This document shows, one piece after another, positions 34,392 to 40,045 of a DNA stretch of 45,738 nucleotides. The position numbers and the translations under genes are program-made. The notes under the pieces were generated by a model. The model made no database searches and was not told where the DNA came from. It saw only the letters and a program-made list of their open reading frames with translations. The DNA lies in contig JAVZZP010000004.1 in the NCBI GenBank assembly GCA_038885615.1, positions 1 to 45,738 on the forward strand. Direction: 5' to 3'. This DNA comes from Candidatus Pacearchaeota archaeon (GTDB taxonomy: Archaea > Nanobdellota > Nanobdellia > Pacearchaeales > GW2011-AR1). Every line of letters begins with the position of its first letter. Position 1 is the stretch's first letter.

Positions 34392-34507
34392 GAGCCCGTA
34401 GCTTAGCCCGGTAGAGCACCGCTCTTATAAGAAACTTTTCATTGAAAAGGAATCTCTTAGGTTTCTAAGAGAGGCGGGGGTCCCAGGTTCAAATCCTGGC
34501 GGGCTCA
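34392..34507 (+). tRNA. tRNA-Ile(UAU) with 42-nt intron (34430-34471) at 37/38
   Basis: GAGCCCG/CGGGCTC stem, A73, anticodon TAT 34426-34428; canonical BHB with CTTA/TAAG helix, bulges TAA and AGA, GAAAC/GTTTC outer helix. Confidence 0.93.
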
Positions 34508-38002: not shown

Positions 38003-38381
38003 GTTTAGAGAGTTTTTAACATCATCGGGAAAAAAAGTTTTAGGTGGAAAGAATGCCGAAAACAATGAGGAGTTAATTGCCCAGGTTTTGCCGAATGAAA
38101 TTGTTTTGCATACAAAAGAGCCAGGAAGCCCCTTCGTTAATATAAAAGAAGATTCAAAAAAAGTTTCAAAAAAAGACATAAAAGGGGCCGCAATTTTTTG
38201 CGCAGCTTACAGCAAGGATTGGAAAAAAAACAAAAAAGATGTCGTTGTGCATTATTTTTTAGGAAAAGACATTTATAAAGAGAAAGATATGAAAACAGGA
38301 ACTTTCGGAGTAAGAAAATTTAAAGAAATAAAAGTTAAGAAAGAAGATATTGAGAGGTTTTTTGGGAGTGTTGAAAAGTAA
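37995..38381 (+). CDS. NFACT-R (DUF814) RNA-binding domain protein
   Basis: FREF..SSG..VLGGKNAENNEEL, LHT..PGSPF, AAIFCAAYS..W, GTF. Confidence 0.85.
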   Translation: MVKFREFLTSSGKKVLGGKNAENNEELIAQVLPNEIVLHTKEPGSPFVNIKEDSKKVSKKDIKGAAIFCAAYSKDWKKNKKDVVVHYFLGKDIYKEKDMKTGTFGVRKFKEIKVKKEDIERFFGSVEK

Positions 38382-38383
38382 AA

Positions 38384-39520
38384 GTAATAGTTGTTATACG
38401 CAATTAAATTTTAGTGGCACTAATAGAAGAGAGACAATTTTAACGAGAAAAAAAAAACGACGAACGGGGGGAGGGGGCGACGAAACGAAAAAATTATAAA
38501 TACAAATAACACCTTACCTCGTATGAGAATAGATTCACACATTTTCCAAATAATTTTAATTGGAATTATATTTATTCCAATGTTTAATATTCTGAATTTT
38601 TCATCAGCTGTTGTTTTTTTGATATTTTTAGGTTTGTTTTGTGGGGCAATATTTCCAGATACTGATTGTAAAGAATCTCGAATATTCAAGATGAAACAAG
38701 ATAACCATAAAATAGGGTGGCAAAGCTCTTACAAAGAGTATAAATCAAAAAAAGATGCTCAAAATATGTATAATACTTTCTTATTCTTTTATTCATCGCT
38801 CTTGATAATTTTAGGAAATATATTCAGATACCTTCTGTATTATCCTTCTTATTATGCAGTTTTATTAATGAATAAAAAATGGATAAAAGAGGATTCTGTT
38901 CAAGATGAACATCGAGGAATTTCCCATACTTTGTTAGGAATTTTTATAGCAAGTATCTTCTTTTTTATTTTATTATTTCTTGGAAATCTTTATTTTAAAA
39001 CAACATCAACTAATTTATTGATTGTTCCAACACTATCATTTTTTATTGCAAGTAACTTACACTTACTTCAAGATTCAATAAGCAAATGGGGGGTAAAATG
39101 GTTTTACCCGTTCAACAAAAAAAGAGTTTATGGGGATTATAGTGCATTCAGCAACGATTCACGAATATTTATTTTTGTATTATTCCTAATTGGTTCTACA
39201 ATTTTGGTTTTCTTTCTGTCTAACTATCTTAAAAATAATCTTCCAAATCTCTTTTTTATAGGTAATATCCTACTGCCTATTGTTTTTGCAGGTTTGTCAT
39301 TTGGAATCTTGTTTAAAATGTGTAATGTAATGATTGAATCTTAACATCGCCCCCTCCTAACGAAAGACGAACGGACTAAAATTGTCCCTTGATACTTATT
39401 CTTGATGGCTCACTTTGTTCGTTTGATTGAACGACTGCCACTAAAATTTAACTCTTCGGTTTCCCTTTGGGACGTTGAACTAAACTTCATTCCTATCGGA
39501 AGCGTATAACAGCAATTTAC
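38384..39520. mobile_element. Candidate gene cassette/module bounded by four nested inverted-repeat pairs
   Basis: IR pairs 38392-38401/39502-39511, 38404-38419/39436-39451, 38433-38442/39377-39386 and 38470-38480/39347-39357; mobility is inferred. Confidence 0.6.
38523..39344 (+). CDS. Membrane metal-dependent hydrolase (YdjM/DUF457-like)
   Basis: N-terminal SH, FPDTD, HRGISHT, HLLQD..G..W.YP; several TM helices; TTATAAATA at 38494-38502. Confidence 0.82.
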   Translation: MRIDSHIFQIILIGIIFIPMFNILNFSSAVVFLIFLGLFCGAIFPDTDCKESRIFKMKQDNHKIGWQSSYKEYKSKKDAQNMYNTFLFFYSSLLIILGNIFRYLLYYPSYYAVLLMNKKWIKEDSVQDEHRGISHTLLGIFIASIFFFILLFLGNLYFKTTSTNLLIVPTLSFFIASNLHLLQDSISKWGVKWFYPFNKKRVYGDYSAFSNDSRIFIFVLFLIGSTILVFFLSNYLKNNLPNLFFIGNILLPIVFAGLSFGILFKMCNVMIES

Positions 39521-39626
39521 CAACTAGGGCACTACAAGTTTTAGCTTAGTACAAGATCTATAAAACAAACTACCTAATCTAATCTTAAACATCAATCTTT
39601 ATATACCTCATTCTCTACAAAAAACC

Positions 39627-39895: not shown

Positions 39896-40045
39896 CCCGC
39901 CATAGCTCAATGGTAGAGCACGCGGCTGTAGATAACTAGCGCAGACTTTCCCTCGGGAAAAGAGTGAAGCGCGATAAGGGCAGTTTCATTGAAATTGCTG
40001 TTCAACAGAACCCGCGGTACCCCAGTTCGATTCTGGGTGGCGGGA
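39896..40045 (+). tRNA. tRNA-Tyr(GUA) with 79-nt intron (39932-40010) at 37/38
   Basis: C1:G72 CCCGCCA/TGGCGGG, A73; CGCGG-CT GTA G..C-CCGCG; central helix CTGT/ACAG with AAC bulge. Confidence 0.93.

Follow-up and report, generated by a model that had tools for sequence, protein, structure and literature searches.

The DNA analysed here (the window) comprises 45,738 nt of contig JAVZZP010000004.1 from a Candidatus Pacearchaeota archaeon (GenBank assembly GCA_038885615.1) and is archaeal, as it carries a 16S-tRNA-23S operon. Between positions 38,384 and 39,520, a single gene for a YdjM-family membrane protein is bracketed by four nested pairs of inverted repeats (arms A-D on the left, D'-A' on the right). 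The module starts 1 nt past the stop codon of an NFACT-R gene (38379-38381), and a gene with a CRS1/YhbY domain begins 115 nt 3' of arm A'. This module is probably a cassette of an integron-like system of small DPANN-type archaea that sits outside any array and is probably stranded. Below, G000 denotes the window's own genome (560,336 bases, 31% G+C), other G labels the genomes of relatives, and L labels loci. The features of the module are as follows.

38382-38391 (+): short stretch, directly 3' of the NFACT-R stop, that looks like a remnant of the L' (3') side and spacer of the family hairpin (weak, by-eye alignment)
38392-38401 (+): arm A, TGTTATACGC, with the conserved TGTT(A) core; perfect complement of 39502-39511
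38404-38419 (+): arm B, 16 nt; 100% complementary to 39436-39451
38433-38442 (+): arm C, 10 nt (13 nt at 92%); pairs with 39377-39386; 13 nt perfect in G393 (by eye)
38456-38467 (+): direct-repeat motif AACGACGAACGG; second copy at 39363-39374, 92% (repeat family D7)
38470-38480 (+): arm D, 11 nt, G-rich; perfect complement of 39347-39357; kept in the left module of G393
38490-38503 (+): TATA-like box about 25 nt 5' of the ATG, inside the innermost arm; predicted promoter, read from the sequence
38523-39344 (+): cargo open reading frame (ORF) for a 273-aa YdjM-family membrane protein (Pfam PF04307, E 3.9e-16)
39347-39357 (+): arm D', perfect complement of arm D
39377-39386 (+): arm C', perfect complement of arm C
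39387-39435 (+): 49-nt conserved insert that contains a small hairpin and the word CTTGAT three times; without a counterpart on the left flank
39436-39451 (+): arm B', perfect complement of arm B
39452-39501 (+): spacer with two small local hairpins (co-fold stems) and GTTGAAC/ACTTC words; homologous stretch in relatives
39502-39511 (+): arm A', GCGTATAACA, which corresponds to the family hairpin's 5' core (..UAACA); complements arm A and fits the consensus auUAACAg
39512-39600 (+): decayed hairpin remainder; retains the 5' stem strand GCAATTTACC but neither the 3' stem strand nor the GATGTTA core

The original prediction, made from the letters of this DNA, had described a YdjM-like gene and its TATA box enclosed by four perfect repeat pairs in exact mirror order, directly after the NFACT-R stop. 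Repeat searches and exact matching recover every pair where it had been placed, and the Pfam match, the TATA-like box and the 1-nt gap bear out the rest of that description. The nesting goes well past what chance would give: co-folding of the two flanks (38384-38500 with 39341-39520, DNA parameters) gains -35.6 kcal/mol, against -11.0 +/- 2.3 kcal/mol when the left flank is dinucleotide-shuffled 200 times (z = -10.5). None of arms A, B and D recurs in the 560,336 bases of the genome, and arm C, an AT-rich 10-mer, occurs six times on either strand. The spacers between arms measure 2, 13 and 27 nt on the left and 19, 49 and 50 nt on the right (counted outward from D'), and this inequality shows that the arms are not a decaying continuous terminal repeat. 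The flanks are also richer in G+C than their surroundings. In addition to the inverted arms, both flanks carry a direct, not inverted, repeat (AACGACGAACGG at 38456-38467 and AAAGACGAACGG at 39363-39374), and ACGAAACGACGAAC-like words recur in the right flanks of relatives.

By comparison with relatives, the module appears to be an insertion into an otherwise conserved gene pair. NFACT-R was located in the loci of 15 relatives, and YhbY is adjacent or overlapping in nine of them, which supplies the empty site that had been proposed as a check; the same adjacency is seen in G004 and G006. Other DNA separates the two genes in four of the 15 loci, namely G003 and three genomes (G008, G013 and G036) whose gap fillings were considered as possible family elements and proved to be ordinary genes without element motifs. 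The remaining two loci have no YhbY within the available stretch. G003 is the closest relative, with flanking genes 93% identical to those of the window, but what fills this site differs (a UvrD-like fragment of 197 aa). It has in common with the window the decayed right-hand part from 39507 onward and, further left, the GTTGAAC variant. Because the same decayed right part occupies the same site in both genomes, the insertion predates their split. An exchange of cassettes at this site between G000 and G003 was also considered, but the site was rejected as evidence of it: since the right flank of G003 is a more decayed copy of the same element with the GTTGAAC variant, replacement of the interior by other events suffices.

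The flanks of the module belong to a wider family. The right flank is kept at 73-93% in other genera and families, each time beside another gene, with BLAST-level matches in 20 of 401 genomes; its 49-nt insert (39387-39435) is 83-93% identical across other genera and families and is usually single-copy per genome. The closest parallel lies on contig C96 of G393, where the right flank is 90% identical up to a point near 39526 of the window and runs on into a full hairpin. The left flank is homologous to a left module of the same contig, situated 3.2 kb upstream of the right module, with unrelated cargo genes. The arm B pair is identical there, and a TATA-like stretch likewise lies 3' of arm D. 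The expectation that the same ends would be found around other cargo is thus borne out in G393, which encloses a different 3.2-kb cargo, and further cassettes are nested in the same manner with different arm sequences. The ten bases to the left of the window's core, AAGTAATAGT (38382-38391), align with G393 ...CGCTTAATAGG before the same core and with the hairpin consensus UuAAuccCgAU, both weakly and by eye.

In relatives, arm A' leads into a hairpin of 90-160 nt that is incomplete in the window. Its order is ..UAACAG, a 12-bp stem, an inner hairpin capped UUGCA, the word CCAAAU, a second inner hairpin, ACUUC and the return strand of the stem, which after a bulge of 2-3 nt ends in GAUGUUA. 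Among eight sequences, 16 of 27 hairpin pairs show compensatory changes, and a covariance model built from these eight (R1) scores the G393 copy at 86.9 bits. Across 51 unique copies there are 1147 Watson-Crick cells and 101 'other', and the AAC/GTT core pairs in Watson-Crick fashion in 46-50 of the 51. Conservation of this AACA/TGTT core agrees with the earlier inference of GTT/AAC cores in a layout unlike a standard attC or a miniature inverted-repeat transposable element (MITE). The ends had also been likened to the arm-spacer-arm pattern of Xer dif sites, a comparison that finds no support by eye: the conserved core is limited to AACA/TGTT within a folded hairpin. The statement that no second structure of this kind exists in the window was examined with R1, which has 0 matches on the window's contig.

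Hairpins of the family form arrays, on the same strand and head to tail, spaced 0.1-3.3 kb apart (median 948 nt). There are five in G200:C6, eight within 20 kb in G010:C1, five in G111:C28 and 23 in G334. The genome of the window has an array of its own, consisting of two hairpins on the minus strand (C1:197958-198095 and 199438-199537); compared by blastn, it has no match to G003:C6 at E <= 1e-10. The system is common: R1 matches occur in 54 of the 151 genomes sampled evenly from the order, in six of its nine families (E <= 1e-5). After each hairpin a cassette starts with ..TGTTAnnn(T/G)CAATT.., and the TGTTA and (T/G)CAATT start seen at arm A is the one found 3' of hairpins in arrays. The left start of the window module (..GTTGTTATAC|GCAATTAAATTTT) equals an array junction in G111:C28. 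The longest ORF lies on the hairpin strand in 22 of 33 cassettes and on the opposite strand in 11. A contig titled Ca. Parvarchaeum (L119) holds two hairpin pairs 116 nt apart (3840-3936/4053-4193 and 7463-7559/7676-7772), which are 'empty' cassettes or tandem sites, as they have no room for a gene.

Two loci bear on the history of the cargo. A YdjM gene with 75% nucleotide identity to the cargo is found in a different family of the order (G044:C2:24191-24997, L006); the YdjM loci of G044 and G049 contain no hairpin, and the G044 locus also has no nested arms. This gene is a possible source of the cargo, or a possible product of transfer. In G008, a congener, a 64-nt relic of a YdjM 3' end (81% identity; C12:9170-9231 plus about 40 nt) is followed by the right-module word GTTGAACTAAAAAT at a locus unrelated to NFACT-R/YhbY, which hints that the YdjM cassette once resided elsewhere.

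Mirror-ordered arms of other sequence recur in the family: L042 has three pairs of them, L043 at least four and L035 two. For 35 cassettes, the first 120 nt were compared with 216 nt lying before and reaching into the cassette's own hairpin, by chaining exact complementary blocks. The two ends of one cassette share a median of 28 nt in such blocks, against 8 nt in mismatched pairs; blocks of at least 20 nt occur in 22 of the 35 cassettes and in 34 of 1190 mismatched pairs (2.9%). Beyond the conserved core, at least 16 nt are complementary in 24 of 35 cassettes, compared with 9.6% of mismatched pairs. When the start of a cassette is joined to its own hairpin, as predicted for a circle, the bottom strand folds more stably than with the genomic continuation for 32 of 34 cassettes, by -11.4 kcal/mol on average. 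For both the pairing and the circle-junction figures, the cassettes of one genome are not independent, which makes the P values generous. Since the pairing of a cassette's own ends is cassette-specific, the arms appear to be the two halves of an extended stem around a recombination-site core, split at TGTT/AACA when the cassette is linear.

The arrays are accompanied by a tyrosine recombinase. A divergent gene with a Phage_integrase domain adjoins them in G010:C1, G377:C7, G111:C8, G200:C12, G200:C54, G406:C15 (broken) and G000:C1 (frameshifted). In the window's own genome it is a XerA-type recombinase about 4.2 kb from the array (C1:203779-204574, +), divided by the frameshift into frames of 162 and 104 aa. 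To gauge this association, loci were selected from species-representative genomes by similarity to the G377:C7 enzyme alone, giving 19 archaeal and 61 bacterial loci. The 19 closest (59-78% identity) are all from archaeal metagenome-assembled genomes (MAGs), titled Ca. Pacearchaeota (7), Ca. Woesearchaeota (6), Nanoarchaeota (2), 'archaeon' (2), Ca. Parvarchaeum (1) and Ca. Aenigmatarchaeota (1). R1 gives 27 matches on these recombinase loci, all within 12 of the 19 archaeal ones; every match lies on the strand opposite the recombinase and 25 lie upstream of it. Where at least 5 kb of upstream flank is present, all eight archaeal loci have hairpins upstream. With the same model, no hairpin is detected in the 61 bacterial recombinase loci, nor closer than about 8 kb to any of four XerA paralogs that belong to another clade.

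Phylogeny and profiles agree with a dedicated lineage. The array recombinases form a clade of 19 rows (support 100/99). Separate clades hold the remaining XerA paralogs of these genomes (99/96) and the bacterial IntI sequences (100/100). The G010 and G111 enzymes pair with each other (97/80) outside the 19-row clade, placed beside Bacteroidota sequences at 90/79 only. Three intact array recombinases score 223-236 bits against the NCBIfam model of archaeal XerA (NF040815, cut-off 220). Against the integron integrase model (TIGR02249, cut-off 265) they remain below threshold at 179-204 bits, with a two-stretch match that skips approximately profile positions 180-236. When aligned with IntI of Shewanella, Photobacterium and Cellvibrio, they do not contain the IntI-specific insertions (columns 189-220 and 231-241; about 40 aa). 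By the XerA profile, the array recombinases scanned are members of the XerA family, yet of a paralog clade apart from the other XerA proteins of the same genomes. Family hairpins in arrays beside this dedicated clade fit the original proposal of a non-autonomous single-gene cassette served by a tyrosine recombinase in trans.

The strand on which the hairpin folds helps to distinguish recombination DNA from RNA. The 51 unique copies of the hairpin contain 55 triloops closed by perfect stems; 37 of these have the top-strand sequence TNC, equivalent to GNA on the bottom strand, and none has GNA on the top strand. GNA triloops closed by C:G form very stable DNA mini-hairpins. If one terminal pair is set aside, there are 43 A.C cells, equivalent to G.T on the bottom strand, against 19 G.U cells. 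Together, the triloop and A.C signals suggest a folded bottom-strand DNA, as for attC.

It is very unlikely, by contrast, that the flanks are one structured RNA enclosing the gene, with repeats that serve RNA folding or processing in place of DNA recombination. Strong covariation in hairpin and arms, the elevated G+C content of the flanks and a terminal pair that is G.U on the top strand in 37 of 51 copies would suit such an RNA. However, Rfam has no match in the window flanks at the gathering threshold, nor above noise at E <= 10, and none in 13 related loci save a 5S rRNA elsewhere in L042. A signal recognition particle (SRP) RNA or RNase P RNA split by the insert was rejected, as both sit elsewhere in the genome (G000:C1:53829-54090 and C5:27562-27924). 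Furthermore, cargo occurs on either strand relative to the element, GNA triloops are confined to the bottom strand (37 of 55), and the arrays adjoin a recombinase; with the TATA-like box situated within the innermost arm, the left arms would be missing from the transcript of the cargo itself. As separate observations from these searches, the SRP RNA is divergent (67.9 bits, below the Rfam cut-off of 96.5), and G000:C10:4098-4459 gives a second, weak RNase P-like match (43 bits, cut-off 84) besides the good match on C5. Rfam tRNA matches at 39896-40045 and 34392-34507 of the window span 150 and 116 nt on a 71-position model and are reported by ARAGORN in neither case; they are probably intron-containing tRNA genes.

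Slightly less credible still is a MITE- or transposon-like element whose long terminal inverted repeats have degenerated and whose transposase is encoded elsewhere. Inverted ends do surround the cargo, these end modules recur around other cargo in G393, and the element is located in an otherwise conserved gene pair. Yet the repeats are perfect blocks set between unrelated spacers of unequal length (2/50, 13/49 and 27/19 nt), arms A, B and D each occur once in the genome, and no target-site duplication is evident at the ends by eye. The relatives stand head to tail in arrays, separated by hairpins and beside a tyrosine recombinase, and G000 encodes no TnpB or Y1 transposase above threshold. These two genes bear equally on a more specific candidate, a TnpB omega-RNA or IS200/IS605 right end (a multi-hairpin 3' element), which was set aside because the context of array plus recombinase fits better. 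Least credible is an invertible segment, in which a recombinase would flip gene and promoter between inverted cores as an on/off switch: the cores TGTTATACGC and GCGTATAACA are inverted in double-stranded DNA and cargo orientation varies (22 on the hairpin strand, 11 opposite), but the 49-nt insert and hairpin lie on the same (right) side in every copy seen with no flipped form, low-depth contigs contain no strand-changing joints (weak evidence), and promoter-like box and ORF are both inside the arms, so that inversion would not uncouple them.

For the integron-like cassette system, we infer action on a folded single strand, exchange at G|TT, passage through circles and arrival of the window copy by such an event. 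Units of one gene or a few genes would stand in head-to-tail order, and behind each would lie a conserved folded site with a 5' core (..UAACA), a 12-bp stem, two small inner hairpins and a 3' core (UGUUA..). Integron integrases cut attC as a folded bottom strand; here, the recombinase would likewise act on a folded single strand, the bottom one, and cut the 3' core at G|TT, which in the window would place the crossover at 38393|38394. Cassettes would thereby be mobile. The excised cassette would be a circle in which the stem of the site extends about 100 nt to either side of the core. Integration would split the lower stem, leaving arms A-D at the left end and D'-A' before the hairpin, and hence nested mirror repeats. 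Conceivably, this zipper stabilizes the folded site in AT-rich DNA and holds the two junctions of the cassette together. The window copy would have entered the NFACT-R/YhbY gap, away from any array, in an ancestor common to G000 and G003, and would since have lost the 3' half of its hairpin, probably becoming stranded. As the cassette carries its own TATA-like box, YdjM could be expressed where it sits.

Several observations weigh against this scheme. The window contains no complete hairpin between 38000 and 40000 (R1, best E 0.9): its copy keeps the 5' core and 5' stem strand, and the rest is decayed, including in G003. About 10 nt to the left of the core resemble the 3' side of the hairpin (by eye), a remnant unlike a clean G|TT insertion into a naive target. 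The recombinase beside the G000 array is frameshifted, and the sole intact tyrosine recombinase of G000 falls in the other XerA clade; for these reasons, and with its hairpin incomplete, the window copy is probably immobile now, and the scheme does not account for its four arms being still perfect. Little end complementarity is present in 13 of the 35 cassettes. The 6 nt after TGTT pair with the 5' side of the next hairpin in 125 of 204 cells and with the cassette's own hairpin in 99 of 204, compared with about 39% for unrelated hairpins, so that the crossover signal is modest. The longest ORFs follow the hairpin strand in only two thirds of cassettes (22/33), and the scheme does not account for the 49-nt conserved insert. 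Finally, no excision, circle or empty-site molecule appears in low-depth Logan contigs of four DNA runs; none of these contigs spans the module or shows joints, circles or inversions, and they weigh neither way.

Integrons are the textbook device for stockpiling and shuffling genes, and their presence in Archaea was not reported before 2022; on paper, the system described here fills the same role. If the proposed mechanism is true, cassette platforms arose, or diverged, beyond the IntI lineage, and the system would offer both a handle on gene flux in half-megabase DPANN genomes and a natural setting in which to see to what extent a folded recombination site can exploit the structure around it. 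It would also account, in annotation, for the orphan GC-rich inverted repeats found around single genes in such MAGs.

Among known systems, the Xer-dependent modules (the pdif modules of Acinetobacter plasmids and IMEX, integrative mobile elements exploiting Xer) are thought to move via Xer-family tyrosine recombinases, using 28-bp double-stranded dif-like sites with two arms and a 6-bp spacer. Like the cassettes described here, they are gene modules without a recombinase of their own, flanked by their sites. In contrast, the site here is a folded hairpin of 90-160 nt, junction conservation is confined to AACA/TGTT and (T/G)CAATT with no conserved dif-like palindrome (by eye), and the recombinase belongs to a paralog clade apart from the other XerA proteins of the same genomes.

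The position of the window copy has a possible parallel in attG insertion, by which bacterial IntI reportedly places cassettes outside att sites (bioRxiv 10.1101/2022.09.11.507474). A lone cassette in an ordinary chromosomal site, away from array and recombinase, is common to both cases. The window copy differs in that its right-hand site is half missing and its left junction keeps a few hairpin-like bases.

The closest likeness is with integrons themselves. Ghaly et al. (2022; PMC9668308) describe archaeal integrons defined by IntI together with standard attC models; there, six archaeal IntIs carry an additional domain and the attCs were found with bacterial models. A literature search found no Xer-type cassette platform in DPANN and no account of Woesearchaeota or Pacearchaeota integrons describing such a system; the supplement of PMC9668308 may list some of the arrays as clusters of attC sites lacking integron-integrases (CALINs). 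In both systems, units that mostly hold one gene stand in tandem, an imperfect hairpin with ..AAC and GTT.. cores comes after each unit, and a tyrosine recombinase in divergent orientation occupies one end of the array. Also common to both are a cassette start complementary to the 5' core of its own site; signs of bottom-strand folding; and many arrays without an intact recombinase nearby, which resemble CALINs. Unlike integron integrases, the recombinases here score as XerA, fail the IntI criterion and are devoid of the approximately 40 aa of IntI-specific insertions. The site is a branched hairpin with the conserved unpaired words UUGCA, CCAAAU and ACUUC, complementarity reaches about 100 nt past the cores into both cassette ends, cassettes have TATA-like boxes and the bias in ORF orientation is only 2:1. 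The window module differs further from a complete integron cassette, as it has just the 5' core and 5' stem strand in place of a whole site. The system differs from known integrons in its XerA-paralog recombinase, its more elaborate site and its mutually pairing cassette ends. Taken together, a dedicated XerA-derived clade without the IntI domain, a branched, GNA-capped single-stranded DNA site, a zipper of about 100 nt and insertions into core operons may, with a likelihood just short of even, amount to an undescribed analogue of the integron.

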